64,000 nucleotides of DNA from Klebsormidium nitens (Eukaryota; Plantae; Klebsormidiophyceae): positions 1 through 64,000 of the forward strand of contig DF237459.1 of assembly GCA_000708835.1 (NCBI GenBank), read 5' to 3'. Of the stretch, positions 6,901-64,000 are shown one piece after another. Positions within the stretch are counted from its first letter, which is position 1, and every line of letters begins with the position of its first letter. Under the pieces are notes generated by a model, which was given only the letters and a program-made list of their open reading frames with translations, made no database searches and was not told the DNA's origin. Made by a program: the position numbers and the translations under genes.

Positions 6901-9900
6901 TGCATTTGCAGAAAAAGTCGATTTTTTCTAGGCTTTAACTTTCGAGGTTTTGTATGTCGACTGGGTGGGTTTCTGAAGAGCCTCGCTCAGCGGAGCGCTG
7001 TCGGGAGCCATGGTTATTGTTGCGTGGCGCGTGCGAAAAGGGACTATGGCCATTGAGGATTTGGCAAGATTCTGAATAATTTGTGCTTGAGTCAGGTGTT
7101 GGCGCTTGAGAAATCATCACTCCGCTTGGTTTTTCCAAGAGAGAGCCTCACATCCAAGGGGAGGAATCAGACCGCTGACGGGCTGAACTCAAATGTGGTG
7201 TCCGGTCAAACGGGCGGCTCTTCCAGCTGTCCATGCCGCTGTTTCTGGATCCTTGAACCCTGAAACTCCCAAATCCTGAAAAGTGGTAAAGCTCCTCGAC
7301 AACAAACGGAAGGAGCAGGCTGCAAACGGGCTGGACATTTCTCTCAGTGGACCGGCTGCTGTTCCAGCTGACCATGCCCTTGCGCTTAAAACCCAAAACC
7401 TCAAGACGAGAAACTGGCAAAGATTGACACTTAACGGAAGGTTCAGACTCTTAACTGGCTGGTTTCCGTTTTGGTGTCAGGTTATGGTGAACGGACTGCT
7501 GTTCCAGCTGTCCATGCCGCTCAACTTCCTCGGGAGCGTCTACCGGGAGACACGGCAGAGCCTGATCGACATGCAGTCCATGTTCTCGTTATTGCAAGTA
7601 AGTAGATACTTCATATCATTTATTCGAGGGTATACTCTTGCAAATTACTCCAGGCTCTCGGCGTGAAGCGAAAGGTTCTCCTTGGAACGAAAGGCTGTCT
7701 CTTAAATCCTTACTGACCCTGCCTCCAGCCGTTTGATCAGTAGTTGAAGACCGAATTTCGCCCCCAACAGAGCATGGTCTGTCCTCACGCTGATTCGGAT
7801 CACAGAAGCTGGAAATTGAAGATTTAGACTGAAAGACACCAGCAGTCCACCGTTGAATCTTGCATCGATGGGAATTTTTGTTCCTTACCGCCCTGAAATG
7901 TTCGAGATCTTTGTGCAACTGTCCGACCGTGTCCTTCGATGAGTCTGTTGAAATCAGTCAGGTCCGTTAGTTTGCAAAACGGAAGCTCAACCTTTTTGGA
8001 GGTTGGCTCCTTTTCTATATCCAAAGGGACCTTTCGGTCCGGAGCGATCGAGTGCCTTGGCCTCAATCCCTGGCGGCACCATCGGCTTTTTCAACGCCAA
8101 CTTTGGGTACCCTCAGAAGACGATCCTGGGCCATGTCTCTTTGAGGGCTTTGTAAGGCAAATTCCGTTTACAAATGGACGCCTGGTTCCGCCAGGATGTG
8201 CCAAATTGGATCTTCGTTTCCAGATCAATCAAGCCGTTGCTTGGGAAAGGACTGACCCTCGGAAGTGACTCCGTCTGGCGCCGCCATCGCCTTTCATTAT
8301 CCAATACGGCGAGCTTTTCTGCAAAAAAATGCGATCTATCATCGGACGTCTGGAAAGGTAATTAGAGCTGATGGCGCTACTAGACAGGTTGCAAGGTAGT
8401 GCCTTTGGTTTCTTCTGCACCAAAGGCTCGATTCAGTCACGGCAAAACTGCCATCTCAGGTGGAACATCAAAAAAGGTGGAGCATGATTGTGCTTGTTGA
8501 CGGACCAACGCTCCAACAAAGCTGTCAAACTCTAGAAACGGTCTCTTGGCGAGGGTACTCATTTCTGACGTCGTTGGAACCCCACCTTCAAAATTCCTCC
8601 TCCAACCAGATCGAGCCTTCGGTCGGGAGTGCCAGACCGTCACGCCCCTCAACCTCTCCGGTGACGCCATTAGCTTCAGTGACGTCAATTTCTGGTCCTC
8701 TCCTAAAGCACGACTCTAGAGCACGTCTCTTTCAAGGTGAAACTCGGCAATCAGTTTGCAAAGTCTTATGCCCCTGTCTTTTCCAACCAGATCGAGCCCT
8801 CGGTTCAAGAGCGGCCAAACGCAACCCCCCTCAACCTCTCCGGCAGCGCAATCAGCTTCAACGACGTCAAATTCGGGTACCTTCCCGAGCGGCCCATCTT
8901 GGACCACGTGTCCTTCGAGGTGCCAGCTGGCAAGAGCCTCGCGATCGTGGGCACTAGCGGGAGCGGCAAGTCGACCATCTTGCGGCTGCTGTACCGGTTC
9001 TTCGACGCGGAGCAGGGGGCCGTGAGTCGTATTTCCATTCTCTTTTTTTGCTTCTGTCCTTGCTTTTGTGGGTAAGGGTTTTGGTCCAAAAACTTTCCGC
9101 TTTACTGTGGGTTTGGGTTTTGATTTAGTTTGTTTACCGTGCCATCTCAGTAGTCTCTTGGGAACTGGCCAGACCGGCACGTCGACCGATTTGCGCCAGC
9201 TGGACCGCCTGTTTGAGGCGGGACAGGGAATTGGAAATTGACTATCGAGAACTCGCGTTGTTTGCAAGTGTCTTGATTTCGTATTCTCCTTGCAAACGTT
9301 CTTGTACTTCTCCCATTCTTTCACCTTAAAACTGTCCGACTTGTACGTCCATTCCAAGGCTGATAGTCGGCCAGACGCTTCCCTTGCGACTTGACTGTTG
9401 CCGAAATATTTTCCAACCTTTCTCCCCGTGATTCAAGGCGACGGCCACAACGTTAGGTAGAGTACATTTCGAAGCCTGCGCAAGTCTGTCAGGGCCTTCG
9501 ATTTCTGTATGTCCTCATTTGAGGTGAAGAAACGGCGGCAAAATGTTCTCTCATATCCGGATCGATGGCCGGTAGCATGAAACCCGGTACACAAATGACC
9601 CCCGTAGGTCTATACTAGTCGTCTCGAGACCTGAAGCGATGGCCAGGATCTTTCCTTGCAGGTCCGCATCGACGACTGTAAAGCACTCAAATCACAATCC
9701 AGCGCAACTCTATGCTGCTTGTCTCGAGGATTGAACCAACGGCCTGATCTTTCCTCGCAGGTTCGAATCGACGGCCAGGACGTGAAGGACGTCACGCTGG
9801 ACAGCTTGCGGAGATCCATTGGGGTGGTTCCGCAGGACACCGTTCTGTTCAATGACACGATCTTTTACAACATCCAGTACGGACGCCCGAATGCTTCCGT

Positions 9901-15111: not shown

Positions 15112-18100
15112 TCACGCCTGCTTGCCACGTGGCGCGAGCGGGTGCGGCGGATCGTCGGGCCCCTGGTCCTCGGCTCTTTTTAGAATCGAATCGTTGAAGT
15201 AGCGCTGCGTCGAGAGCGCATAGTCGAAGACGGGCAGGTCGGTCGCGTCCGAACCGAACGGGTCCGCGAGCGCGCACGACAGCTCGCGCAGGCCCAGCAG
15301 CGAAACCGTGGTCACGAACATGCCGACGATGGAGTAATAATAGCTGCGTGAGACAGGGGATTGAAAGGGATGATAATAGCTGCGTGAGAAAGAGTTTTAC
15401 AGATGAGTCAAAACAGCTGCGTAGAAAAGGAGTTTGAATTTGAGTAATGCTAGCTCGAAAGAAGAGATTTGACAATGGATAAGTAATCGCTTGAGACAAA
15501 CGATCAAAGATGAGTCAATACTTATTGCCAGAGACAAAAATGGAATATGAGAAAAAGGGACTGAATATAAGTAATACCACCTGCCTGGGACAGGAAAAAA
15601 AGATATCTCACCCGTGCAGAAACCAATGAGGTAACATTTCAAGGAAGAGCTCATTCATCAAGGATTGAAGGCCCGTCGGCAGATGGGCAAACGTGACAGA
15701 GGGAGGGCAAAAGACCTGTCCTCGTAGCAGGAAAGCAGGAGGAAGCAAGAATGATTGCGTATGCAGTAGAATCAGCCAATTTTTTACGTCTGGAAACATC
15801 AATGCATTCAACAATAAGGGGACGTCAGTGCTAGGACGGGTGGGGGTCAATGCGGGTGTGGATGCGGGTTCGGAGCGTGCACCAAAACGGAAATGGAAAC
15901 GAATCCGGAAACGGAAACAGAAGTCGAAACGATACGCAAGCAGAAGAAGGTACCACACGAGTACCGCGTTTAGGAGGTGCCAAACGGACTTCGAAAAGGA
16001 AACGGAAACGGAAACGGAAACGGAGACGGAACGAAAACGGAGATGGGAACGGAAAAGGAAACGGGAACAGAACGGAAATGGAAGCGAATACAAAGCCTTC
16101 GTACCTGTACATACAGTACGTGTATGCGAGCAGAAGAAGGTACCCCACGGGTACCGCATCCAGCAGTGACAAGCGGAAACCGAAGCGGAAACGGAACCGA
16201 AACGGAACGGAGATGGGAACGGAACTTTTGTACCTGTACATACAGTAAGTGTGCGCGAGCAGAAGAAGATACCCGACGAGAACCGCGTTCAGGAGTTGAC
16301 AAGCGGACACCGAAACGGAACCGGAACGGATACGGAGATGGGAACGGAATTTCGAACCTGTACAGACAGTACGTGTACGCGAGCAGAAGAAGGTACCCCA
16401 CGAGTACCGCGTTCAAGAGGTGGAAAAAGGCGAAGGGGACTGGCATCGCCAGAAAGTCATTGACGGTCCCGATATTGGCAATGACCTGCAGACACGGATT
16501 TGGCGTCGGTTCAGTGCCGCAGTCACGCTGACGTCACTCTGCGACAGTCGTCTCTTAAATGCAGTTTCGCAAATACAGATAGAAGGGCGCTGCTGTCAGA
16601 TTGACTTCCAAGGTCGTCACCTTCGGCACTGCTCTGGAGAAAGAGGACTTCAGCTTGTGGACATATATGACGGTCTTGACCGGCGCCAGATGTATGCAAA
16701 CCGTTTGAGTATGCTAAACATTCTGTCAACTGGCACCTCTGGGGGTCGGTTGCTTACGTCGCTCGTGAACGTCACGAACCGGTCCAACTCGACGTTGCTG
16801 ATGTCACCGTTCCGGAAGTGCGCGTAGAAGCGCTGGTAGATCCACATGGCTACTTCCTTGAATGCCTTGCCGTCTGGGAAATCGATCCAAAAACGGGTTA
16901 ACAGACGGGCAAGCGGGATTACTCAAACAGGTTTGAAGGCGAGCGAAGAAACGGGGAGCCGGGTTTGAAAGGGGTTAGGAATGGGTGGAAGATAAAAATA
17001 CTGGATTACGAAGCGGGTAAGTTGGTAAACGCAGAAAAATTAGACCAGGTTACGAAACGCGTTAGCACGCATGCAACTCTGCCGAGGTCTCACCTAAAGT
17101 CATAATGTGTCATAGCGGGGTAGCAAACAAATGGCAAAACCGCAAAACAACAAAAGTCCATTGACTTTTTAGCTATTTCGAGCCACTCAAAAAGGATCCG
17201 GCTCGCCGATACCTGCACTTACCGAAGGCGGTTAAGCACGACCACGGTCGCTACGTGGAGCACAGTGCACTGAAAACGGCGACCTCAAAGGTGACACACG
17301 GGCCTTTAATTCAGTCGCCCAAAAAAGCTGTCTAGCGCGCACTTTGATTGCTTAATTGAGATCTCTTGGAGCATCAAAATCACTGGGGACTCTCCGCAGC
17401 CGGGTGACCTCAGCAGACGTCAGCAGCCCCGTGTCTTCGACGTGCTGCCAGGCCCACGCGCCAGCCCCGTTGGTCTTATAGAACGGCAGGTTCGCGTATG
17501 CCAAAACTGCACGGAAAGCGTTGCTCTTATATAACGGCGGCTTTGCGTATGCCAGCCCCGTTGGTCCTATAGACGGCAGGTTTGCGTATAAGAGAACTGC
17601 ACAGAAAGCGTTGCTCTTATATAACGGCAGGTGCGCGTATGGCAGCACCGTTGGTCTTATACAACGGCAGGTTTGCGTATGCCAGAACTGCACAGAAACT
17701 TAAAGCTGTCGGTCTTATCATAGAACGGCACGTTCGCGTAACTCAAGACTGCAGGTACCAAAAGCGCTTGCTTTAACTATAAACGGCAGGTTATCACTTG
17801 GACAGAACTGCAGCAATGCGTTGCGCTTACACCAGCTCTCGTAATCTAATCTTGAGCGGCAGGCCTGCGTATGCAAGGACAGTATGGACAGCGTCCTTCT
17901 TTCAAAACGGAAGGCTAGCGCACTGTGTCAAAAACTGCGGGAAAAGCGTTGGTCTTGTAGAACGGCAGGTTCGCAAACGCCAGAACCGCACGAGAAGCGG
18001 CCACGTAAGCTGACAATAGGCTGCGTGACGTCACTTTGACATGTATATATGCCAGCGAAAACATTCTCTGTGAGAGTTGAGAGTGATCGGCAGGTCCGCA

Positions 18101-33800: not shown

Positions 33801-36800
33801 CCGCCACGCGCGCACGGCGCGTCGCCGCTCGCGCGCACGCGCTCCCAGAGCGACAGCTCGGCGCCGTACGCGAAGAGTTCGTTGGTGCCAGAGCCGCCGC
33901 GGGTGGTGCCGCCGAAGAGGTAGAGCTTGGAACCAATCTGAGGAGGATAGCAGATGAGGAATGATATGACGTCACATTCTGCCAGCATAAAATCAATGAA
34001 TGGGAAGGCGGTATTCAGGAAGGCTCCGTGAGCGTTCAATGAGTCGACGCTTGGGCGGTGCCGCCAAAGAGACCCAGCTTGGAGCCAATCCGAGGAGGAC
34101 AGCAGATGAGGATTGGTATGACGTTAGATCAGGATTACGTCACTTTATGAGAGTGCCCTATGTTGCGGCTCTATCAACGCGTTCAATTGTTGGTGCCGGA
34201 GCCCCTGGGCGGTGCCGCCAAACAGGTACAGCTTGGTGCCGATCTGAGAAGGACAGTAGGTAGATGAGGATTGGTATGACGTTAGATTCAGGATTACGTC
34301 ACTTTTGAGAGTGCGGTGTACATGACGGCTCTATTAAAGCGTTCAATTGTTGGTGATCGAGCCGCCGCGGGTGGTGCTGCCGAAGAGATACAGCTTGGAG
34401 CCGATCTGACAGAGGAAGCAGATGACATCAAAAGCCATCTTAAATCCCTGTATAGTTGCTTCTAAGAAGGCGGGAGATGCTGATAGGAAAAATGTTGCAG
34501 TCGATATAGTCTTCGCTTCAAGAGAACGCGGTAACGTCACGGCTTCGTGTCGGTGAAGATGCTCAAGTCCCCGGGCACCACTGCGGCACATTGACTCGTG
34601 TCCGGCCCGATAAGTGGAAACTGTTTTCTATCCAGCCAACTCGCGTTTCGTTTTGTATTATCGTGAACAATCGAGTCTTGAAACAGGCCTCGAGATACGT
34701 TTCTGGCAAGCGAGTCGCACTTCCCCTGTGAAAACGAGTGTGCTCATCGGAGGAAATCCGGATCACGTAGAAGGCATGTGCATTTTTATCAAGCGATGCG
34801 GTGAACTCCCACTCCAATAAGGTGCTGCGGGGCTTCATTCCGTGGGCACTTTCGAAATGCTGTCCGTTGTATTCTGGGGGCCGCATGTGGCGTTTTGTCA
34901 TTACAATCAAGCCGTGATAAACACAAAAGAAAACGAACAGAAGGGATTGCGCTGAAGTGACTCGAAACCAACTAATTCTCACCTTGGTAAGCGTGCTCCG
35001 GTCCCGCTCCGTGGGCACGTTCACACTGCTGTCCGTCAGCTTCTGGCGGGTGTGCTGGAGCGTCCATGGCAATGCGCCGACGAAGACGGTGTGCGTGCTG
35101 CGCGCCATTGCTAACCGTAAGTCGTCCGCACTCTGCTGCGCCGTCCGAAGAGCGCCTTCCAGCCGATTGAGGTTACTCTGCAACGAAAATTCGACAGATG
35201 CGTTTACATTATAGTCGCGAAACTGATCTGTTCTAAGAGTTTCTGTTCTAAGAGTTTCTGACGTTTTTCGCCCTCTTCCGATCAACATCCGTTGCTAGGA
35301 AGCGTAGTCCTCCCACCTCTGCCGCGCTGTCCGAAGAGCGCCCTCCAGCCGATTCACATTGCTCTGCAAGAGAACGTTAGTCTCAACTCTTTCGCGGATG
35401 TTTCAAACGTCGGTGAACGCCTCCGAGCTGTTTAGTCTTCGTATTCGCATTTACTGATGGTACGTCGTCCGCACTGTGCTGCGCCGAAAGCCGAGCGGCC
35501 TCCAGCCAATCTGGACTGTTCTGCAAGAGCATGTCTACTTTTGTAAAACTCATCAGTTCTGGTTATCTTCCGATTCCACATTCGCACTTAGGAAGCGTAA
35601 GTCGTCTGCACTCCGCTGCGCCTTCTGGAGGGCGCCTTCCGCCTTCCAGATTACTCCGCTAGAAGAGTTTCAGCTCGTTTCCTTGATTATCTTTTACGAT
35701 AGGAGTGAACTCGCGAGCTCTCCGCCTTTTCCGTCTTCAAAGCTATTCGCTTATGCCTTGGAGGGTAGCATGCCGTCTGCAGTCTGCCGCGCCGTCCGAA
35801 GGGCGCTTCTAGCCGAAACGGGTCAATCTGCAAAATCCTATTCCGAAGAGCGGAGTCGTCAACTCCGAGCTCAGTTTCTGAAGTCCTACATGCTTAGTTA
35901 CTTTCGAAGATCATTTGCTTAGCCTTTCGACAAAAAACAGATGGTCCACTTAGTCTCTCTTGATCGCGTTTGCCAACTCTCCCTTTTACCCTTTCCCTAC
36001 CGTCCTTTCTGTCCTGCCGTGCTCTTTTTCTTTGCTTCCAGTCGAAAGCACACCGAAAGATAGGCGACCAACAGAAGCAAGAAAGCAGGCAAAGTGTCGC
36101 CCTCACCTCGTATATCCGAATCTTCGCCTCCCGCCCCTCTAGTTCTGCCTCTAGTTCCCTTATTCTCGCCAATGTCTTTTCCCGCTCCGCAACGACCGCC
36201 CCCGCCTGCGCCATCTGCTGCCGCGCAATCTCTCGTTCCCGCTCTAGTTCCTGGACCCGCAAGTCTCGCGCCTCTAGTTTCGCCGTGAGGTCGTCGACGG
36301 TCTTTTGGAGGTCGCTCGCGATGGCCGAGCGCGCGGCGAGCTCGCGCTCCATGTCGGCTAGGACGTCGTCGCAGTCCTGGGGGCAGAGCGGAAGCTTAGC
36401 GAGAAATCCGGAGCGGAACTTATCAATATCAAGAGAATCGAGGAGGGACGAAGTCAGGATAGATACAGAGCGCGAAAGTGCCGCATCAAGCGCGAGATGC
36501 CGCACGTGACAATTTGGCTAAGATGTCGTCGCAGCCCTCGAGGCAGAGAGGAAGCTTAGCGAGAATTCCGGCGCTTCAGAAGATTTCTAAAGAACATCAA
36601 AAAGGAAGAAATAACAGGAAGATAGATGAAAAGCGCGAGAGTGCCGCACGTTACATGTCGGCTAGGACGTCGTTGCAGTCCTGGGGGCAGAGCGGAAGCT
36701 TAGCGAACATTTCGGAGCGGAGTCTCGAAGATTCTGACAGACTCGAAAAGTAGGGCCGAAATGAGGATAGATACGAAGCGCGAGAGTGCCGCATCAAACC

Positions 36801-38713
36801 ACACGTAACAATTGGGCTAAGATGTCGTCGCAGTCCTCGGGGCAGAGAGGAAGGTTAGCGAGAAACACGGAAGTGCAGCTTCAGAGACTTTCAAGAGGAC
36901 AACAAGAAGGAAGAACGACAGCAAGATAGATAACAAGCGCGAGAATGCCGACAGTACATGTCGGCTGGGAAGCGTAGTGGTCTTGGGGGCAGAGGGGAAG
37001 CGTAGCGCCACATTCAAGATGCAGGCTTGCTTGGGGTTGACGTAAGGCTATCCTATCTAAAGAACTATGCGTTTCTGCTTGATTGTAGCCTTGACTCCAG
37101 GGCCCGCCAGCGCGGCGCCTGCTAGCGGAAGAGTTGCATTCCCTCGAACCACGAATCAGCCACTTTCGAAACTGACAGGAAGAATGACGATCGGCTCTTC
37201 GCAAGAAAAGCAGCAACGTTCACGTGAATGTAGACAGAAAAGCCGTGCTGTATGCCAGCTGTGTAAAACGTCCCACCAAAATTACAAGGTTCAAAATTCT
37301 AAACAGCCCAATCCATGGCCAGAAAAACAATCTACCCACCTGTTTGACCGTGATGATCTCTCTCCGAAGGTCGTCCCGTGCCCGCATGAGCTCCTCCGCT
37401 CTCTTGTCCGCAAAGGCGGTTCCTAATTTGGCCTGCAGAACGAATCCAAGCGCTAATTGTCAGCCATTTTCGATAACACGAAACCTAGTTTCCAGAGGGA
37501 AAGTGAAAGCCCCCAACGTAAGGGGACGGGTAGGATCTTTATCATGGGAATCGACACTAGGTAGGCCTTAGTCTAGGATCTGACATGCCTCTTAGATGCA
37601 TTTCTCCTGTAAGTAAAAGGACCACTTTCCTCAACATTATTTGAAAGCAGACCGGAAGCGGTGCAATGCATCTGATTCGATTGCCCGTCCAAAACTCTCC
37701 CTCATTGGGGCAGCACGGCTACAGTGAAAGCTCCTGAGCAACGAGAAGGGGTTTAGACTGAGAACACAGATTGAAGAGGGACTCAGACGTGCCGTGCCAG
37801 ACTCTCATTTGTATGTGCTACCATGTCCTAACTGCGGCGTTGGGGTGGTGTGAAAGGTTGCCAGACTAAATAGAAATCTAAGTCTCGAATGGCCCAAGAC
37901 AAAATAAATTTACTTGGATGCTTTCTGGATGATTATGCTGGTGTCTGGTTCTATATCGCATGTGAACTCCTGCAGCTCTATCAGTGTCATCAACCATGCC
38001 AAAACAATCTCCTCAATGATTTTACTTGACATGGAATTCGACAGACACTGGGGGGCAGGACGAGGGCTATATCACAACAGGCATGGTTACCAGGTACGTG
38101 AGAAGAGACCAGCAGGGATCAGCAAGGTCAGCTTACGTAACGGCGAATTGGAGATTGACGGTGCATCTCCAGAACGTCAGATTTCGACTTGACAAGAATT
38201 CATGGCGGAACAGTGCGGTAAAGTGGTTGCATGATTCGCAGATGTCGTCCTCTTTGTGGAAAGAAAGTCAAACAAGCGGGAGCTTTCTTAACATCCAGCA
38301 AACGTAAGCATGATACGGAGGGTAGAATTTATCTTCTTGAGTACGGCATAAATGGGAATCAAGCTCTCTACAAAAGCACAAAGGAAATGCAACAGACAAT
38401 CGGATTCGCAGGGAATGATTTCGAGGGCAGTTTTTAAACAAGTTAATAAATTCAAGTCCGATACGTATTGGCTTCACAGCATTGCAATACTTTTTATGTA
38501 GCCAAAGAACGTATTACTCATCTCAACCCCAAAACAAGGATACATCACAAATTCCATGTCCCTTCCAAGGAAATAGCGGCTCCTTCTTACCTCCTCTAGT
38601 TCCAGCATCAACTGAGCAATCCGCTCATCCTTCTTCAGTGCATCTCTGTCTGCATCGCTGACCCCGTCCGCGGCCTTGTCTGCCTTTGCGCTGCCCTTCC
38701 CTTTCTTCGCCAT
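27812..38713 (-). CDS. Coiled-coil + Kelch-repeat + C-terminal fibronectin type III protein (~686 aa, 14 exons)
   Basis: Exons 38713-38591, 37432-37340, 36376-36107, 35177-34983, 33937-33698, 33280-33116, 32553-32419, 32157-32058, 31749-31678, 30850-30620, 30002-29916, 29508-29417, 28680-28567, 27955-27812 (2061 nt, in frame). Kelch motifs KLYLFGG, ARGGHCAV, LLVFGG, VFAFGGY, PREGHAA, LLISGGH. FN3 motifs VDVTWRVP and LSGLRSGADYYFRVK. The exon 10-11 junction is the least certain. Confidence 0.83.
33940..34430 (-). repeat. Three acceptor-side echoes of the first Kelch exon
   Basis: Copies at ~34050-34110, ~34205-34270 and ~34360-34430 encode IGSKLGLFGG, IGTKLYLFGG and IGSKLYLFGS; two retain an intact CAG acceptor. 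Confidence 0.88.
35290..37010 (-). repeat. Acceptor-side echoes of coiled-coil exons 4 (four copies, 35290-35870) and 3 (four copies, 36500-37010)
   Basis: Plus-strand units ...ccgtccgaagagcgccttccagccga...ctctgcaa and gtcgtcgcagtcctgggggcagagcggaagcttagcga recur in degenerate form at ~150-170 bp spacing. Confidence 0.85.
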
Positions 38714-39417: not shown

Positions 39418-39597
39418 CGGACTAATTTAGGTATAATAAGCGGCAGGTATAATATTAAGCTCCACAGGCTGGGACGGGTGGGGTTAGTTTGGGGGTTAGG
39501 GTGGGTACGGGTGTGGAGCAGGTAGATGGCTGGGTTAGGGTTTTAGTGTTAGTTGGAGCTTATTATACCTAGCTCTTATTATACCTAAATTAGTCCG
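39418..39597. mobile_element. MITE-like element (180 bp) with perfect 23-bp TIRs and a G-rich core
   Basis: CGGACTAATTTAGGTATAATAAG (39418-39440) is the exact reverse complement of CTTATTATACCTAAATTAGTCCG (39575-39597), with subterminal AGGTATAAT repeats. The core is homologous to 46487-46664. No clear TSD was found. Confidence 0.72.
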
Positions 39598-45518: not shown

Positions 45519-54241
<8,723 letters not shown>

Positions 54242-54538
54242 GTTTGAAGCTCCGCCTGGGAACAATCCTGTCAGATGCGCGGCCCAGTTCGAACTTTGAT
54301 GAAGAGAGACCATGGAACTGCCTGTGGAAGGAGGGATGTGAGAAGAGTGCTCGCATGCTTCACGGTGTTACCACAGAAAAGCAGAATGCTTTAGAACGTC
54401 AGCGGTAACGACTCCCGTCCCGTTTCGCAAACAGGTTGAGAGGGGGTGTTACCGCTGAAGTGGCAAAAAACCGCCAATTCCCCGGCGCCATGGTGATCCC
54501 TTCCTTCTGAAGCCTGAGCAAACTTCACTTCCCAGAGC

Positions 54539-54572
54539 AGAGTACCTACTAAACTGAGAGTACCTACTAAAC
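54539..54572. repeat. 18-bp tandem duplication in the NSUN5/MYND divergent intergenic region
   Basis: agagtacctactaaac-tg-agagtacctactaaac. Confidence 0.85.
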
Positions 54573-54668
54573 CTCATGATGCCTCAGGCAAGTTTTGTGA
54601 TGCATTTCACGTTGGCGCTTCAGAAGCCTCTCAACAGAGCTCAGAGCCCTTTTCCTGCAATCAGCGCC

Positions 54669-55355
54669 ATGCCTGCTTGTGATGTCTGTGGATGCGAGAC
54701 AAAGAATCGGTGTGGCCGGTGCCAAGCCACTCTCTACTGCACTCGGGCGCACCAGGCGGAAGCCTGGAAGCAACACAGGCCGTCGTGCATTTCGCCAGCT
54801 CCTGAAACAAATGTCCATTTCCCAGGGTATACCCCACAGCCGAGTTATGATCAAAGGGGCGAAGCTAGATGGGCCATGGACTGAGGTACAAATCGACGAA
54901 GACGACCCCATTTGGACGGAAGGTGTGATCTGTCCAGTCCCGCATCTGTTTGGGTGCCTTTGATTATTTGGAGGCACATCCGAAGGGACCCACTTTCTTC
55001 CCCGCGTGACCAAAAGCTCGACAACCAGCCCGCAACCTGGCTCATGATCGATCCGCACACTGGGTTCGCGCCTCCCGCCTGGCAAGGCAATGTAGGCCCC
55101 GTGACGATCGCACGGAGCGATAAGCAGCCGTTGCTATCGGCGCAACTTGACGTGATCCATGAGTTCATGAGCCACTTGCTGGACATGTTTGGTGTGACGG
55201 GAATGCCTGGTTCGGTTCCCCGCGACAGAATGGGCAGGGACGCGTTCCGGCGGTTCTGGCGAATGATGGTGCCCGGGAAGAAAGCGGACCAGCTGGTGTA
55301 TGGACGGAACAGGGCCAATCAAGTGGACTGGGATGCGGTGCCGTGCCCTTGCTAG
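54669..55355 (+). pseudogene. Intronless MYND zinc-finger protein gene with two frameshifts
   Basis: MYND pattern CDVC...CGRCQATLYCTRAHQAEAWKQHRPSC in the first frame. GPWTEVQIDEDDPIWTEGVICPVPHLFG lies in the +1 frame, then VPLIIWRH...DNQPATWLMIDPHTGFAPPAWQGNVGPVTIARSD returns to the first frame, which has TGA at 54882-54884. Confidence 0.7.
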
Positions 55356-58086
55356 TGGGCGAGAGAAAAGGTGAGTTCAAATTTGGCTGGTAATGTGATG
55401 TAAGAGCTCTGACCACGTATGGTCTGTTTCAGCTTGGTTGGAATTCTAGCGAATGCATCTGTGGTTTTGGTTTCAATTGCTGATAGAGCCATTGAGCAAA
55501 TGAGCTGTTAAGGTGCTGTCAAGCTGTTAAGCAGTTCAGCTGCGGTTAAACCGTTGAGCTGCCAGCTTCTTCAGCTTTCTGTCCTCCTAATGAGAAGCTG
55601 CTGATTTCTTCAGGATGTTCCTATCTCTCTCCTTGGACAATCTGGCTGGTGACTCTCTTATATTCAGGGCTGGAGACATGCAAGGCTAGAGTCGGACTCT
55701 GTCCTGCACTTAGAATGAGGCTTGTTAAGCAGCCTCTGAGCATGATGAATCTTCATTCTGAGCGTGGTGAATCTGTTAGCAGTAGCTTTTGTAACTGAGT
55801 GCTGGCAGTACCATTCAATAAAAAGCCTACAAATGTACCTCACGTCGTGAACTACCTCAGACTTCATTCTGCAATCATCTCAGCATGACTGGTGGTAAGT
55901 GGCACTTGAATGCCAGCTGGACAAATGCAGCAACGCAAGGACCAAGGCTGTTGAACCATCAGATGGGTTGACATTACCGATGTTTTGGGGAGGGACCCAT
56001 GAAAGTGTTCTGAGCAACCCAGCTCTGAGAGGTTCCAAAGCCTCAGTACGAGGGAAGCATTTGGAGCTTTGCTGGTGGCTTACCAACTAGTTTACCTTTC
56101 TGTGACTTAGCTGTCGTCCTTCCAGACTTTCGATTTTGTCAACTTCCACTTCGATGATTTCAGAACTCTGGGCAGTGCCGGGAGCTAGAGTGAGCGTGTC
56201 CTGATTCTTTGTCTCTTAGTCTGATGTTTGCAACAGCTGCGGCAGTTAAGGATTGCTTTTCCTTTTCGCTCAGAGCATTGATGATTCCGTTTGAGCGACG
56301 CCCCAATAAATTTTGGCGGAGGAAGTGTCCATAAAGAGAACCGCTTTCAGCCATCGGCTTTGTTTCCAGGTAGTATTTCAGGGCAATGGAAAGCGAAATG
56401 GATCTTCGTCACCAAGTTTGCGGGCGACTCAAGTCCTGGCACACAGTGGGGAACGAGCTCCGGGTTGGCTTCATCGAAACTTCTTGTCTATGAGTAGAGG
56501 ATAAAAGTTAATGTATGAACCATTTCTGTTGGCTTATCAATCTGCGAACGCTTCTTGTTTGTCTGACGTGCAGGTCAACTAGACATGTCGCTGTTTAAAG
56601 GAGGCCTGAACGACGCCTGAAGACAATTTAGCCAGGCCAGAACGACGCTTGAGAACAATATGTAAATAGAGACGGACTAGGGGAGATCGGCACTTTTGCT
56701 GCCCGTTTTCAAACGGCGCGTGAACCCGGATGAGCAGCTCGATGCCATGATGTCGAGTCAAGGCTTTGATGTGTTTGATGCTGCCAGTAAATCGTGCCAA
56801 GAAGCTTTTGGTCGTCTATGCAAAGAAGGCTGTGGAAGCAAGTTTCTCTACAGGTTTGTTTCGGAGGCATGGCTTTGAGTTCCTTGGCCATGTTAATGGT
56901 AAGAACTTTGACAACAATATATAACAACTTTGTTTTTGGATCCGATCACTTACAGCTTCAAATCTGCAAGCTGTCATTACTGAGGAAACGGCTAAAAGCA
57001 ATCGCATCCCAACTTGAATGGGTTGCCTCAACAATGACCGTTGTGGGCGTTTGGGCTTATTGTGGGCACCACAGTGTAAACGTGGAAATATGGTGAACGG
57101 CATCGACTGACACAGTATAGCCTCATGCGGTTTTCACAGTCTTCTCACATGTGCCACTGCAATCCGATGATCGATCTGCGACACATGCACGCGTGATATT
57201 GATCTGTGACACATGTCATACTCAGTGATCTGATGATCTGTTGGAACCATCTCAAAGTTTGTCGACCCTGCCGGATCATATGAATCAGAGTCTAGCGGTG
57301 GAAACTATAATCCTATACCTTTTAAAACCCCCATTCAACCGAAGCCAATTGAAATATCGGCCCTGCGTCCGTAAACGTGTGACTAGTATGCATGGGGCCT
57401 TTCTATTGAAAACAGTTTTGAGTAGAGACATGATACAGTGGAAAGACGAAGGAGGGTACGTTGCATTCGCCGATATCATGCATACATGATGCGCATCATG
57501 CCGCGGCGTTCGTTGGAAACTTCGACTAACCCATGCTTGATATAGAGCTCAGGAAATCTCTCAGCGCTCTCTTTTCCTAGAGCTAGGAAAAAGTACTGAC
57601 GATGTGGCACACAACTTGAACATGTATCGTGTGCATACCTAGTACATATGAAGCAAATTATGAGCGCAAGCGTGGAGATCGTTGAGAGCTGGCTGGGCCA
57701 TCCACCCATGCCGCCAAGGAGCTGGCAATATGACGTGCCCAATGGTCCAACAAAGGGCAGGGGCAGGGGCAGTGGCCTACGATACACCTTCTGCGCAGTC
57801 TCTAGTTAGTCGGTCTCATTATAGAAGGCTTCAAAATCTAAGTTGGTTCGAGGATAAGCAAGGTGCCCTTACATCCTGGAAAGCATCACCTATAATGATC
57901 TCTCTTGCAGAGCAAGCCTAAAGAGTAAGAAAGTTACAACCAGGTCAATACCTTGTTCCTTGTCTACCTTAGCTAGGTTGGAGATGTGATACAGCACCCT
58001 GTTATATGAGTAGGGGCCCAAACTTGAAACATGGCCTCAGGCGCGTTCTAGGACAGGGGTCCTGAAAAGATGGCAGATTTGCTAGC

Positions 58087-58458
58087 TCAGAGGGTCTTCG
58101 CAACAGAAGGGCAGACGCAGGTACACTCCACAGTTGGAGAGGGTGCCAGTGGCCTCTCCGTCAACCCAAGCAAGTTACCATATACAAGGGGAGCGGTCAA
58201 AAGCGTAGCAAGGAAGCCTATAAACACGTAAATGTCAGTGCTTCTGTCGTTCAGAACTTCCGCAACTTCTAAATCCAGTATTTCTTCTTCTGTCAATGTT
58301 CTATCCTCATCCTTTTTGAGGCCCCTGACGATTGTTCGACTTTGACGTCGACGAGGAAGCCTGGGGGAAATTCAGGTGCGTTCTTCTGAAAAATGCCAAT
58401 TCCCAACTCACGCCTGCCCACAGCGCATCGCTTCCCATAGCTTCCTGAACAAAGACAT
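58087..58458 (-). CDS. Possible small orphan membrane protein (2 or more exons)
   Basis: GCCATG at 58458 and a 51-nt GTGAGT...TTTCCCCCAG intron (58411-58361) give MSLFRKLWEAMRCGQALPRRRQSR...TEEEILDLEVAEVLND followed by a hydrophobic segment IYVFIGFLATLLTAPLVYGNLLGL. No family recognised. Confidence 0.35.
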
Positions 58459-59498
58459 GGCGGGCCCGCCTTTACGATCTGGGCTCCTAATTGTTGTTTT
58501 TTTGCCGCAGGGGAGCAGTACTCGAAACCTGCCTGGCAAGAACAAGGACGGCTGCAAACGGCTGATTGTGGGGGCGCCATGAAATGGGTCAACAGGCTAT
58601 GATGAAGGAGCGGCAAGGATCCTGTAGGTTGGAGAAAGCAAGTTTAGGTGTATCTCAGGCTGATCTGCTTCTCTGCTGTTCCCTTATCATTTTTCAGAAT
58701 GAACAGATCGGCCAATTTATTGTCCTCAGTGCACTGGTGGGCCCGGGGCTACTCGACTTAAGGGATCACTGTTGAGCCGGTAGCTGCCGGTTCTCGTCCT
58801 CAGGCTCTGGCTTACACGAAATTTACCGACTGACACCCACGGCAAGTATCCCCGAGCCTGCACGTGACCGTGCCAATACGCTATGTACACGGGGCTGACG
58901 GTTATTACATCGGACGGTTTCTAGGCACTACCGATCATCCGACGGTGCATTTCTGATTGCCTCCTTCCTTTACGACTTGTACGTACGACTTCTCGATGAT
59001 TCGGAGTCCTGAGTCAGCTGGGCTGCCCAGCAAGACTACGGGTCCGAGTCGATCAGTACGGTAATCAGAAGTCTAGGTACCGACTGCTACTGTAGCTGCA
59101 TGAGCTGCATGCTCCTTGCATCATGCCGGTCTGGCCAGTCCTTGCTCAGCATTCAAGTCGCGAGCCGTCTGACACATGTTTCTGAGCTGGCAAATGATTG
59201 ATCGGAGGTTGAGACCGTACAGGATGTTCTGTCGTGAGTTGGAGCTGTCAGACTCAGGGATCTTCTCAGGTTGTGCTTTCAAGGAGCCGTAACGTACGCT
59301 TGCAACGGTTTTTGTCGTGTCTGACGTTGCGTTGTATGCACGGATGACACGTCTGCACCGACAACCTCCTGTGGCAACCTGTGCTGTTCTGCTGTGTGCA
59401 GCCCGTGTGCAGTGACTTCCCATTAAGTTGCTGGGAATTGTCATTACTGTCGGCAATTGTCGGCAATTCCCAATTATTGCTGGGAACCGTGAGACGGG

Positions 59499-59507
59499 AG
59501 TATAAAA
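59499..59507 (+). promoter_or_regulatory. TATA box upstream of the orphan gene
   Basis: gtataaaag, preceded by an array of TTCCCA/TGGGAA half-sites (59417-59486). Confidence 0.35.
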
Positions 59508-59994
59508 GACCTCCAAATCTCACTTTGCAACTTCATTTTCCGAGTTCAAGATTCAGGAGCGCCAGTAGGAGTCGCCGTACTCAGCCACTGCCTGAGGCTC
59601 AAAGCTGCTACTGTCTGCACGTAACCCTCAAGCTCCTAAGTGGATGCTGACTACTCTTATACTCTTGTCCGAGTCAGTCTTGTAACCCTAGATTGGCCTA
59701 GATCATGCACTTGGTTGGGCTTCACTGAATACTCACTGAGGTCTGCCACCTTATACCGGCCAGGCTACTAGCTCAAGTGACCCACTCAACCACCGTGGCC
59801 ACAGACTCTCTCAGTAAATACTAGCACCACTTCCAAAATGGAGCTGGTTCATTGTCCAATATAGCTGTACACCCATACAGCCCATACAGCAAGCCCATAC
59901 TACAGTAAGCACAGCCACCTGCAACCCCACTGCTGGCCTCTTATGATACTGCCAGTGGTACAGTAAAGAGTGTTACTATTGAAATAAGTAAATC

Positions 59995-62141
59995 ATGGGG
60001 CTTTACAACCGTAAGGACTTTGAAGACTTTCAACGGGACCTGCGGGCAGCGCAGGCAGCTGCAACAGCAGAACCCGCAGCACCAAGCTGTACAACCACGT
60101 CCGGGTCAAACGAGAAAGCGCAGGAGAGTCTCCACACGCCAGGCCACAGCAGAGACTTCTTGGCAGTAAGAAGCTCAGCTCCCTTCCATAAAGAGGTAAC
60201 ACGGTGTTATAGAGCTTCTCCATGTTTGTTTAGACAAGGCCGGGCACAAAGGCATGGATCATGCAGACCTGGGGGCTGCAGGTCCTCGTATGATCTCCGT
60301 CTAACACTCTGTTCAACTGGATGAACAGTAATCACACTTACCTTCTTGCAGGAAGGATTCGCAGAACTCCAAGCTGAAGTTGAGGCGGCGCCGGCTGCTG
60401 CCACTAGACGCCTGATCAAGGGCCAGCGAGTACTAAGAGAACAAGCGCCCGCCGGCCCTTTCAACGACGCTGACAACGGAGTATTGGCCGATCTTGTTGA
60501 AGAAACGGAACTGTACAATCATGTTCCACCGAAGGAAGCGCGCCGGCGAATCGTGCTTTCGCAAGAGCAGGTGCGTTATTTCCCTTCGTTAATTAAAAGG
60601 GTGATTTGCCTCTTTAGTTCACAGTTGTATTACCTTATTCACAACCTGGCAAGCGGATCTGGTAGGCTTGCTCTTAGTTTTCAAGCTTCAAGGATCTGAA
60701 AGCGCATGACCTCAGCCGTCACACCGTTTAGTGCGGGAGCTCGAGCTCTTTGTCAGCTGCAAAGAGATGCATCCAGTCTTGGGAAGGGCGCTTGAGACCT
60801 GTTGCAGACTGGATCCCCGCAAAAAATGCCTTTTAAATCGGAGAGTCGGACGTGAAGGTGTCTTGCAGCTCTATGCAGGATCCGTGCTGATCTCAGATGA
60901 CTTTGTCCGTAGAATATGCTGACAGCACAGCTTTCTGCATGCAAGGAGGACGACGGGGATTCGGAGCTCGACGACGGGATTGACCTGGAAAACAGCGAGG
61001 AAGAGTTTCGACCGAGAGCCCCCCAGCCATCCAGAAACATCCGAGGCGTGATCGATGACTCCCCAATTTCCGATGATCTTCACGCGCTGAGACAGATGGA
61101 CATCGAGTTGGACATCAGGACGGAGGCTGCGGCAAGCAGGGAGGGAGACTTCTTGGCCCAATTAGAAGCGAAGTACACTGAGAAGCGCACACAGTCCAAG
61201 GTGAGCTCGACCTGCAAACGGTGGTCATCCAGCTGCCCGAGTGGCCAGTTGCAGCTGAGTGCATGAGTGACAACTGACCTCAGACTGCACAACTTGCAGA
61301 GCATTAGCGGTTGCCAAACGGACACAAGTTTCTCGTTTCCCGATGTCTTTTGTAGCGGCCGGTTCTGTGAGTCCAACGTCACGAGATTGTCCACTCAAAG
61401 ACAGAGGCCCTTGAAGCCGATTGCAATTGCTTGGATGCAGATCTGGGTTCCCGACTGACAAAGTTGGCCGGGCCAACACAGAGACTAATCAACTTGGTTT
61501 ATACTTTGATTTCGATCTGGTCAAAGCTGACAACGAACAAACTTACTGAGTTCCAACATTCTTCGAATGCAGGAAACTAATGTAAGGCGGAAAAGGAAGC
61601 GGACAGGGGGCGATGATGATAGTGCAACGATGCCGCTTCCGGTGCGTGCCAACGAGGTTGAGGCTGGACAGGAACTTGACGTAAGCAACGCTTGAGAGGT
61701 TTCCGCAAGTGCAAACGTGCTTGTGCGAATCAAAGCCCGGGAGTAAAAGTTTCCTGAATGTATGTATTGACTCATCTTAGGGGATTTTTACTCCCAAGTT
61801 GGTAAGGCTTTCGTAGTGACGTCTGCTTAGATGACGAGCTGGTTTGAACGGGGCAGTGTTTGCTCCAAGTGAGCACGTCGACTGGTCGGTTTTGGCTATG
61901 TCTTCTTGCGTTATAACAACAGTTTTCCCGACTGGTTGCAGCCCGGGACTGATGCCGAATTCCGCCCAGGACCGCCAGGCTACCGCCGGGGTGAGGGGTC
62001 CAGCAATCCGAAGCCTCAAATGGTGAGCAGCTTCGAAGCCGGAGTTCTGGACTCTGCTTGCTTGCTCACTTGCCTGCCTAGTAGGTTCCTGCAAGCTACG
62101 GAGTGCTGGACAGGAGCGCCGATTTTCCAAAGCTGCTTTGA
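59995..62141 (+). CDS. Orphan acidic protein with a putative NLS (~311 aa, 6 exons)
   Basis: Exons 59995-60195, 60352-60570, 60931-61200, 61573-61680, 61942-62022, 62085-62141. All introns are GT-AG phase 0 and there are no internal stops. Contains RRKRKR and an acidic tract EDDGDSELDDGIDLENSEEE. The last two exons are uncertain. Confidence 0.58.
61739..61795. repeat. Palindrome unit A
   Basis: GGGAGTAAAA-(37 nt)-TTTTACTCCC, perfect 10-bp arms. Confidence 0.85.
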
Positions 62142-62210
62142 AGTCCGGAGGGATTTCTGATGATGGGCCTAAAGAATAGATCAGGCAAGAGATGCGGGAT
62201 CACCAGAACA

Positions 62211-62374
62211 GGGAGGAAAACGCCCTTCTAAGTATAGCAATTGACTTATCTCAAAGGGTTTTTACTCCCGACCCTTGAGACTAGAACGCTCAAATCCTGA
62301 AGGGCGCTGCAAGACAGGGAGCAAAAACTCTCCTAAAGTATAAGAATAAGTCCACTCAGGAAGTTTTTACTCCC
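62211..62374. repeat. Palindrome units B (62211-62269) and C (62317-62374)
   Basis: GGGAGGAAAAC...GTTTTTACTCCC and GGGAGCAAAAAC...GTTTTTACTCCC, both followed by GACCC. The spacers are AT-rich and alignable with unit A. Confidence 0.85.
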
Positions 62375-62413
62375 GACCCCCTGCCATACCTCCTCACACC
62401 GGACTGTCTCCTC

Positions 62414-64000
62414 ATGCAGGACACGTTCGGCCAGGGCTGGTTCTACAAGAAGGCCGAGGCGCTCGCATACCAGTCTGACAACGACCATGCGCTCATCGTT
62501 GCCAGTGACATCAGCGCCGGCAGCGGGGCCAAGAAATACACCAGCTTTGCTGACGTGGACGCTCTCGTTGCCTACCTGGAGTGCTTGCGGGCCAGCGAAA
62601 TCTCTCCGTGCCTCAACGAGTGCCTCGAACAAGACACCCCCTGCTTGATGTACTTCGACCTGGACTACTCCGTCCCGGCGCAGGCTGATGCCGACTTTGA
62701 GGAGCGCTCAGGGCACTTCTTCCAGGTTGCGCGCCGCTTCCTCAAGTAGGTCCTCGAGATTCCCCCTGAAGCAATCGCTTTCCAAATAGCCACGGCCCAC
62801 GGCCCGGCTGCTTCTGGAGACGGGTACAAGCACAGCTTGCACGCGTGCGTCCCAGGGTTCTACCTCACCGGCTGCAAAGCCCGTGCAGCATTTAAAAACG
62901 CCCTACAAATGTTCACTGCAAACCCTCCCGAGGACCTGCGGCGCAGCTGCGAGTTCCTCAGGTACCAAAAGGCGAACGGCAAAGAGGACTGCATCCTCGA
63001 CTTTGCTGTGTACGGGCGGGGCCAGCTGTGGCGCACTCTCTACTCCGAGAAGCTGGGAACGGGTCGCCCCCTCGTGCCATCAGTCGGCAGCTCGGACAAG
63101 GTGGAAGACCACCTGGTGGGCATCTACAGCACGGTCCCGACAGCGTCGGCGCTGAAACCGTGTTCGACCGACCTGCTGGTGGCATACACCCGGCCAGCTG
63201 GCGGCGCGCGCGCACGCGGGGAAAGCCAACGGCCCCAACCGAGGACTGCTGTGGCAATCCGAGCGCAGTATGCCGACGAAAGGCCCCAACCCGTCAGCCC
63301 ATTGACCCAAGTCGAATGCGACCGGCTGCTGAAGAGGTACCAGAGGGATCACCCTGGAGCTTCGATCGCTCGGGCTCCCGAGCATCTTGGTGGCACCATT
63401 TTTGCGGTGCACTTTGATGTTCCGGAACCGTACTGCTGGATTGCAGGGCGCGCCCACCAGTCCCCTGGCAACTCTTGTGGTTATCTGGTCTACGACAGGG
63501 CCCACCCATCAAAGGCCCTGTACCGCTGTCACGCTGGTGATTGCAGGTAAGCTGTCACGCGCCCTCAGATCAGCTCGTCACCAATTATTGCAGCAAAGCG
63601 TGCTTGCTTCGAATGTATTCAGAATTTGTCACGCGCCCTACTTCTGAAGAATGTGAAACACTTGCAAAGATGCTTAAGTTCGTTGCACGATCCTGGATCA
63701 ATTCCGAGCACGCGGCCAAGCTTTTGGTAAAGGTTCGCACGCAATTGAAGCATCCGTTCTTGATCGTTTGCAGTGGGACCGGCAGCCATGGCCAGAGACT
63801 CCAACGCGTTTTGCTTCTTGATGGGGACCACATCGAGAGCTGGACGGAAGAGTACGAGCTGGTTGGGCGGATGCGCGCATACCCTGTGCCCGATCTGAGC
63901 CCCGGCGCGACACCTCTCACGACGATGGTGATGGCCAACATGGGGGCCGGGAAATCAAAGGCGCTGTTGCAGAAGCTCCTTCCAAAGATTCCCCCGAGTG
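62414..64000 (+). pseudogene. AEP primase-polymerase + Zn finger + UL9/origin-binding-type SF2 helicase (3'-truncated by the window; one in-frame TAG)
   Basis: AEP motif I YFDLD, motif II KHSLH, motif III LDFAVYGRGQLWR; PrimPol/UL52-type Zn finger CWIAGRAH...YRCHAGDC. After a GTAAGC...TTTGCAG intron (63547-63773) the frame continues as WTEEY...MRAYP...MVMANMGAGKSK (Walker A). In-frame TAG at 62747-62749. Confidence 0.85.

Follow-up and report, generated by a model that had tools for sequence, protein, structure and literature searches.

A spliced primase-helicase gene with a premature stop and its multi-copy family in the alga Klebsormidium nitens

Gene structure and state of the copy

The window (i.e., the whole stretch of DNA that was analyzed, 64,000 nucleotides from Klebsormidium nitens) is intron-rich eukaryotic DNA of about 51% GC and ends inside a forward-strand gene for a PrimPol-like AEP domain, a C-H-C-C zinc finger, and the start of a UL9-like SF2 helicase. 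The GC content at this locus resembles that of host DNA. The upstream neighbors, 3-15 kb away, are spliced ordinary host genes. The features are listed below with the evidence on which each is based.

50214-55372, reverse strand: RsmB-type methyltransferase gene (RNA contigs, Pfam)
54578-56986, forward strand: MYND-finger gene, spliced from 55368 to 56572
59995..60165, forward strand: exon 1 (predicted start), low-complexity N-terminal region, stop-free, donor GTAAGA (database model P0097 at 100%)
60352..60570, forward strand: exon 2 (P0097; an RNA contig of run X8 joins it to 60946; an X7 contig has a loose end)
60946..61200, forward strand: exon 3, acidic linker, AAG acceptor, phase 0, stop-free (RNA contigs of X6 and X8)
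61573..61641, forward strand: exon 4, basic RRKRKR stretch (an RNA contig of X6 spans both junctions)
61942..62022, forward strand: exon 5 (RNA junctions in X6 and X7)
62420..63546, forward strand: exon 6, PrimPol-like AEP domain and C-H-C-C zinc finger (sequence; 50% identity to the intact paralogue P0003)
62657-62665, forward strand: AEP motif I, DLD (sequence)
62747..62749, forward strand: premature TAG between AEP motifs I and II
62834-62842, forward strand: AEP motif II, SLH (sequence)
62993-63001, forward strand: AEP motif III, ILD (sequence)
63434-63544, forward strand: C-H-C-C zinc finger (sequence)
63547-63773, forward strand: phase-2 GT-AG intron directly after the last zinc-finger cysteine, frame kept (sequence, paralogue homology, database model)
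63774..64000, forward strand: exon 7, cut by the window end, start of the UL9-like SF2 helicase (Herpes_ori_bp match of P0002; match to the origin-binding protein of HSV-1)
63934-63957, forward strand: Walker A, ANMGAGKS, in exon 7 (sequence)

Four introns of the gene (60571-60945, 61201-61572, 61642-61941, and 62023-62419) are removed in RNA-type contigs from four runs of a single study, the source of all splice evidence for this gene; the "RNA" status of a run is a guess, assigned where its contigs show spliced joins. Upstream of exon 6 there are five exons starting at 59995, all in phase 0 and without stops, and four of their five introns were seen spliced. The remaining one, between exons 1 and 2, was seen spliced in none of the five RNA-type runs, which consist of assembled contigs and in which non-coverage is therefore uninformative; likewise, the lack of coverage of the gene in run X9 counts for nothing as absence. 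The donor of exon 4 is placed later by the database model (61681) than by the RNA junction (61641). An earlier reading of the window made from the sequence alone (hereafter the sequence-only reading) had the protein start at the ATG at 62414. This ATG overlaps the acceptor of intron 62023-62419 and lies within a segment that is spliced out in an RNA contig of X7; since this last upstream join enters exon 6 at 62420, it is not the start. The in-frame GT-AG intron of the same reading does stand, at 63547-63773, in phase 2 and with the frame kept; its junction (63546/63774) is predicted from the frame, paralogue homology, and a database model, and was present in spliced form in none of the five RNA-type runs (again contigs, with non-coverage uninformative). 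Ahead of exon 1, RNA-type contigs span 59568-60038, which suggests a 5' untranslated region of about 450 bases, and a TATA-like stretch at 59496-59508 is overlapped by a half-site of the intronic repeat described below.

Just upstream of the gene, an unspliced transcript of about 0.9 kb (57720-58687) was detected in X7 and X8 and was not covered in X9. Three of its ORFs were scanned without a Pfam match, and it could belong to the same unit as the primase-helicase gene. Further upstream, the MYND-finger gene abuts or overlaps the 5' end of the methyltransferase gene, and one RNA contig joins both. Repeats were also observed elsewhere in the window: a short dispersed repeat in an intron of the methyltransferase gene (52285-52480), matched by many DNA and RNA contigs that then diverge; two copies, 76% alike, of a MITE-like element of ~180 bases with inverted ends (39418-39597 and 46487-46664); and degenerate tandem repeats of ~90-165 bases (2933-3542, 15933-16430, 17460-17999, 33881-34425, and 36350-37007), mostly between or inside host genes.

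The premature TAG at 62747 is the only stop among the seven exons within the window. It is unchanged and unspliced in an RNA-type contig of X5 (62533-62787), which derives from a second study; DNA contigs carry it without difference, and one X7 contig touches it. Because the X5 contig bridges the TAG without difference, sequencing error, editing, and removal by splicing are all excluded for this stop. We also considered an intron beginning at the GTAGGT with which the TAG overlaps, and rejected it, as contigs are unspliced there and homology runs on. Two database models match the window at 100%: P0097 terminates at the TAG, and P0002 begins after it. The latter comprises 863 aa, lies on a 66,265-base contig, and extends past the window; its C-terminus is ~100 residues shorter than those of the longest paralogues, which we infer to fit a contig that ends within or just after the gene. 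Beyond the window, P0002 reads VCVNP, with proline where the other 11 of 12 aligned clade and near-outgroup rows having the motif carry serine. The sequence-only reading took the TAG for the only visible lesion, and this is correct for stops in the seven window exons, but the proline at this nearly invariant serine is a possible second lesion further downstream. That reading also proposed a recent inactivation (e.g., CAG to TAG). Recent loss would agree with the motifs being intact and splicing still taking place; CAG to TAG is no more than a candidate origin of the stop, as the aligned column varies among paralogues.

With motifs II and III missing from a truncated product of fewer than 400 residues, the most that it can yield, this copy is likely dying and non-autonomous. 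We consider it very unlikely that the stop is instead read through or recoded, such that the copy remains functional with a regulated, low output of full protein. Such recoding would agree with the TAG being the sole stop in seven exons, with the intactness of all AEP and most helicase motifs, with the splicing of the transcript, and with the candidate recoding signal found on relatives (see below), but no examined paralogue has a stop at that column, the proline of P0002 replaces a nearly invariant serine, and no editing was seen at the TAG. The bases that follow it are not known to form a leaky stop context.

Protein domains and the algal clade

All of the motifs reported by the sequence-only reading (i.e., the three AEP motifs, the C-H-C-C zinc finger, and the Walker A sequence) are present. 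Pfam searches with three separate pieces of the window gave nothing significant. Model P0002 matches Herpes_ori_bp above the cut-off (Pfam, E 9.6e-12), as that reading had anticipated, and the best PDB match by sequence for its helicase core is the origin-binding protein of HSV-1 (E 4.7e-5). The later SF2 motifs expected downstream were found in P0002 as well, specifically Walker B (LDEVN) and motifs III, V, and VI. Both domains lie in one frame, through the in-frame intron in the window copy, as single models in P0003, P0004, P0160, and P0163, and also in intronless relatives. [quoted passage not shown] Its best whole-length structural matches (E 1e-33 to 1e-20) were giant-virus "replication origin-binding" proteins of Bodo saltans virus, catovirus, marseillevirus, and others. 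A search of 1.84 billion representatives yielded 317 matches at E up to 0.001, many of them 1,000-1,200 residues long and with both domains. Full-length relatives with 28-32% identity are encoded in viral contigs of 234 and 548 kb, and the 548-kb record (L002) has NCLDV capsid and PolB genes alongside the relative. The match of P0004 to Herpes_UL52 is weak (E 0.005). An orthologue of cellular PrimPol, single-copy and stand-alone, was ruled out by the fused helicase and by the multi-copy clade among viral proteins.

The primase-helicase fusion itself is already known. Excerpts of PMC11253617 describe it for giant viruses and mriyaviruses, with AEP joined to UL9-like SF2 helicase in mimivirus R8, ASFV pF1055L, ostreid herpesvirus 1, and some Yaraviridae. 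Thus, of the proposal that this is a one-polypeptide primase and UL9-like helicase of viral ancestry, the domains and the ancestry hold (by Pfam, PDB, and fold), whereas the architecture is not new according to the same excerpts (PMC11253617).

Ten further named K. nitens models, 35-93% identical, fall into the clade of the window copy (KFL_011070010, 003120135, 005960040, 009210030, 001380250, 004310010, 003120020, 001380210, 010630010, and 007230010). This bears on the count of intact paralogues that the sequence-only reading had proposed; among the named models KFL_003120020 and KFL_001380210 are intact, P0003 and P0160 are intact as well, and several clade models are partial or missing a domain. 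The closest named relatives of the window copy are all K. nitens models, and among 30 clusters looked up there was no orthologue named outside this species. Clusters at 90% identity contain 5, 7, and 7 members, which may come from different strains. The named models occur on different scaffolds, although two paralogue pairs share scaffolds by locus tag. Short matches to the AEP and Walker A regions, followed by divergence as expected of paralogues, were also seen on further contigs from the same DNA sample. The catalytic motifs are kept across copies at ~35% overall identity, which suggests that the copies diverged while under selection.

Phylogenetic trees pointed to a single algal clade. In the helicase tree (128 rows), all 14 algal-type rows formed one branch (SH-aLRT 98) whose sister was the intronless P0039 (97), and a mixture-model helicase tree of 46 rows likewise placed 10 of 10 algal rows on one branch (99; sister support 98). 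Rows with fewer than 280 residues of the core were left out of the helicase trees, except for seven algal-type fragments added by hand. In the AEP tree (135 rows), one branch with a support of 99 held all 29 algal-type rows, and nested inside it was P0170, in which the clade's AEP is joined to a D5 helicase. The trees were quick searches without bootstrap and gave long-branch warnings outside the algal clade, for which reason we name no viral donor. All relatives outside the clade are viral or unnamed intronless proteins. The closest outgroups, P0039 and P0145, are intronless and lie on contigs of ~4 kb, and they are possibly a living virus or element ancestral to the algal clade. No locus of Klebsormidium type was recovered in five scans of viral contigs and two of metagenomes, for which the clade, its sister, the leader, or the sites served as queries; one metagenome scan had no match, and the four matches of the other were all distant, AT-rich, intronless relatives.

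Two further arrangements were observed among the relatives. In the unspliced fragment P0152, a D5-like stretch, which we take to be the D5 C-terminus, comes before the zinc finger and the C-terminal half of the AEP of the clade, a possible sign of nesting or recombination between copies. Related primase genes are also found on small contigs that are AT-rich or compact (L060 at 2772-7401, L008, and L011), and the upstream ORF of L060 presumably resembles a retroviral-type integrase, which would point to Polinton-like elements carrying this replicator.

Many of the database entries are unspliced ORFs, and probable intron positions were taken from where these ORFs (and their protein ends) terminate. 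Of 41 fragments examined, 12 contain the zinc-finger end, 11 of them from the clade. Among these 11, nine stop one residue past the last cysteine, one stops four residues past it, and one enters unrelated sequence, whereas the outgroup P0145 continues through the zinc-finger end into the helicase linker. In about 13 helicase fragments, with every subfamily represented, similarity ends at a second position that they have in common. We infer from these breaks that two introns were probably present in the common ancestor of the clade, and the position of intron 63547-63773 is likely common to the family. Two ancestral introns would imply the multiplication of an intron-bearing DNA unit. Introns older than the spread favor a mobile element over a single endogenous virus, neither being proven, and their retention would speak against both retrotransposition and the repeated entry of a viral gene without introns. 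The sequence-only reading had envisaged either a single viral gene intronized in the host or a new self-synthesizing element. These results favor the mobile-element option; the gene is one member of an old multi-copy clade rather than a single capture, and its introns appear older than the spread.

Leader, intronic sites, and origin of the family

Several paralogues carry a leader in which a hydrophobic tract is followed by G(G/C/A)(V/I)ExNPGP. A profile of the region upstream of this motif matched 16 proteins at E up to 0.1, all of them K. nitens or unnamed transcriptome models, and a rebuilt leader profile matched 21 proteins among the sequences gathered. Atlas searches with the leader produced no usable match, which speaks for neither absence nor novelty. 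Primase modules are present in 10 of the 21 and are of four kinds: the clade's AEP with UL9-like helicase, the clade's AEP with D5, a distant AEP-UL9 type (P0187), and Prim-Pol with D5/SF3. P-loop NTPases, weakly recognized, are present in six leader proteins, one of which has a weak match to trypanosome RHS (E 0.002, far below the cut-off); the leader-bearing NTPases presumably resemble Crinkler/RHS proteins. NPGP was found in 18 of the 20 leaders viewed and the aspartate of the canonical GD(V/I)ExNPGP in none. The leader's 2A-like motif is a candidate ribosome-skipping signal, bearing in mind that a 2A motif alone does not predict activity (excerpt of PMC3708506). The window copy has no leader and no NPGP motif (leader profile over the six frames of the window, best E 1.2), and models P0004 and P0160 are likewise without a leader. 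P0187 (KFL_002940130) represents a second, distant AEP-UL9-like lineage with the leader and falls outside the window's clade in the trees. Three proteins that share the leader (P0191, P0195, and P0196) are isoforms of one Trinity gene from an unnamed transcriptome, and the two of them that were viewed run on into different NTPase cargo, so that the leader is transcribed with varied partners.

The introns of the window copy contain three inverted-repeat sites, none assigned to a strand:

61739..61795: intronic inverted-repeat site 1, GGGAGTAAAA...TTTTACTCCC with a 70% AT spacer (DNA hairpin z -1.9)
62211..62269: intronic inverted-repeat site 2 (DNA hairpin z -1.4)
62317..62374: intronic inverted-repeat site 3 (DNA hairpin z -3.4)

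They measure 57-59 bases and take the form GGGAG(N)AAAA, a spacer of ~70% AT, and TTTTACTCCC. The paired form was observed three times against 0.00 expected in 100 shuffles, which, as the pattern was drawn from these very sites, shows recurrence and not function. Only the paired form is enriched; half-sites with two mismatches are not (22 in the window versus 16.8 expected). A diverged copy of 62186-62377 exists on another contig of the same DNA sample, and no target-site duplication is visible at the paired sites. A single match to the paired-site pattern in viral contigs, phage-like, was judged to be chance, and a lone sub-threshold miRNA match on site 1, obtained with Rfam over 55-64 kb, was rejected. 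In HSV oriS, UL9 binds inverted boxes that flank an AT-rich spacer (excerpt of PMC12543377). The algal sites resemble this layout in having paired inverted sites and an AT-rich spacer, although their sequence is unrelated to the oriS boxes. By this analogy they may be candidate origins of the primase-helicase; they could equally be short non-autonomous repeats unrelated to it.

Our preferred reading, to which we give about an even chance, is that the window copy is a stop-broken, spliced member of a virus-derived mobile replicator family in Klebsormidium. The protein that this gene encodes likely carried out replication for the mobile DNA of the family. Modeled on UL9, an intact copy would bind a paired inverted site and its SF2 helicase would then open the AT-rich spacer; the AEP domain would prime synthesis in the manner of PrimPol, and elongation would be left to host polymerases. 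This one-protein initiator model draws on likeness to UL9, PrimPol, and CyRepA1. The family would have multiplied at the DNA level after gaining introns, and the leader would mark the shared front end of an element, with replication modules and other cargo being exchanged after it. Several results support such a mobile family, specifically the 10 further K. nitens models and 90%-identity clusters of 5, 7, and 7 members, i.e., many dispersed copies with young subfamilies, the single algal clade in both helicase and AEP trees, the shared ORF breaks at two places, the module swap to a D5 helicase in P0170, the leader on 21 proteins, 10 of them with primase modules of four kinds, a CyRepA1-like helicase (E 5e-35, below the family cut-off), and three paired sites laid out like HSV oriS (PMC12543377, in excerpt). 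Against it, we found neither a transposase or integrase upstream of the gene nor a terminal repeat or target-site duplication there, no Klebsormidium-like locus was recovered in the metagenome or viral-contig scans, the window copy is without leader and NPGP while no leader has the canonical aspartate, the shared introns are read from ORF ends with splice support from one study, and the inverted sites could be unrelated short non-autonomous repeats, another copy of which exists elsewhere.

A lesser but real possibility is that the locus is a remnant of endogenous viruses, either a giant virus or a small nucleus-replicating virus of Polinton-like or mriyavirus-like type. The introns would then be viral or gained after integration, and the rest of the provirus would lie downstream or have decayed. 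The outside relatives, all viral or unnamed and intronless, and the L002 record with its NCLDV capsid and PolB genes speak for this, and since the window ends inside the gene, remaining viral genes could lie downstream. In excerpts of the literature, SF2 and SF3 helicases interchange in mriyaviruses (PMC11253617), NCLDV core genes occur in K. flaccidum (PMC5294986), and 2A motifs are typical of viruses (PMC3708506). On the other hand, spliced host genes occur 3-15 kb upstream and no viral gene separates them from the gene, the locus has host-like GC, the leader also heads non-replication NTPases, and no viral contig matched the clade or the leader. Within the window, no NCLDV hallmark gene cluster was seen upstream of the gene; capsid, packaging ATPase, integrase, and transposase were not recognized there by ORF reading and Pfam on nine selected ORFs, nor were an HUH nuclease or terminal inverted repeats seen in 56-64 kb.

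The leader-bearing NTPases and the host-type, spliced introns bear on a further reading, which we regard as unlikely: a domesticated, fast-turnover host family built on a captured viral replication gene, whose leader is shared with Crinkler/RHS-like NTPases. The family would be used in conflict with viruses or transposons (e.g., as a decoy or sensor) and would have grown by tandem and segmental duplication. The two paralogue pairs on shared scaffolds (by locus tag) and the six leader proteins with P-loop NTPases, one with the weak trypanosome RHS match (E 0.002), fit this origin, as does the occurrence of Crinkler/RHS-like proteins in free-living eukaryotes (excerpt of PMC5289972). However, several models are partial or missing a domain and the window copy is broken, no named orthologue was found outside K. 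nitens among the 30 clusters, and four primase-helicase types behind one leader would fit replicons better than one host function.

A bolder form of the mobile replicator family is tentative and rather unlikely. It would be an undescribed class of capsid-less, self-priming mobile DNA in Klebsormidium that encodes a polyprotein with a 2A-like leader, the second half of which is either NTPase cargo or an interchangeable primase-helicase from giant viruses or plasmids (PrimPol-UL9 twice, PrimPol-D5, and Prim-Pol-D5). Its UL9-type members would carry oriS-like paired sites in their introns, with gene and origin as one unit. No description of the algal primase-helicase family was found in the literature searched (most subscription papers lay outside the search), and what looks undescribed here is the context, i.e., a multi-copy spliced algal family, its shared introns, the leader, and the paired sites. 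With a nuclear, spliced family that includes intact members and has candidate paired sites in the gene, a tractable enzyme-origin pair would become available. If the family is mobile, an element type driven by a replication initiator would join the transposon classes of eukaryotes, from a streptophyte alga and thus a relative of land plants, and the range of 2A-like signals, RNA viruses and retrotransposons, would widen to include DNA-replication genes. Should it prove to be provirus debris and nothing more, it would still mark an old, intron-bearing virus lineage of streptophytes.

Comparison with known systems

The AEP and UL9-like SF2 primase-helicases of Nucleocytoviricota have the same domain order and catalytic motifs as the algal protein. 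Unlike them, the algal gene is nuclear, with at least six introns and a long acidic N-terminal linker, and it has many diverged copies in one algal genome, a 2A-like leader on algal relatives, and no viral neighbors seen upstream. Herpesvirus UL9 is the best PDB match of the helicase core both by sequence (E 4.7e-5) and by fold (E 1.7e-15), but the similarity is confined to that core, and the UL9 of orthoherpesviruses is without an AEP domain (excerpt of PMC11253617). Cellular PrimPol of the human CCDC111 type shares the AEP fold (TM 0.66 over the PrimPol chain) and the C-H-C-C finger; it differs in that its sequence match is weak (E 0.09) and the algal protein is helicase-fused, multi-copy, and lineage-restricted. 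Likewise, the match of the helicase region to CyRepA1, a plasmid replication protein of cyanobacteria, covers most of the model (E 5e-35), with a score of 121.5 that is below the family cut-off of 200, whereas the algal N-terminal domain is a PrimPol-like AEP.

The leader resembles that of 2A-bearing non-LTR retrotransposons (ingi, L1Tc, CR1, and L2), in which a hydrophobic tract followed by (V/I)ExNPGP lies near the N-terminus of a mobile-element protein (excerpt of PMC3708506). In contrast to these, the algal leaders have G, C, or A in place of the aspartate and their cargo is a primase-helicase or NTPase, with a reverse transcriptase match in none of the 18 proteins scanned; the window copy lacks the motif. 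The Polinton-like viruses and mriyaviruses of protist genomes, as described in excerpts of PMC10120064 and PMC11253617, also have many copies per genome and interchangeable primase-helicases, and many of them have no processive polymerase of their own. The algal gene differs from them in being intron-rich, and genes for a capsid, a packaging ATPase, an integrase, or an HUH nuclease were not seen in its upstream flank, nor was a terminal inverted repeat.
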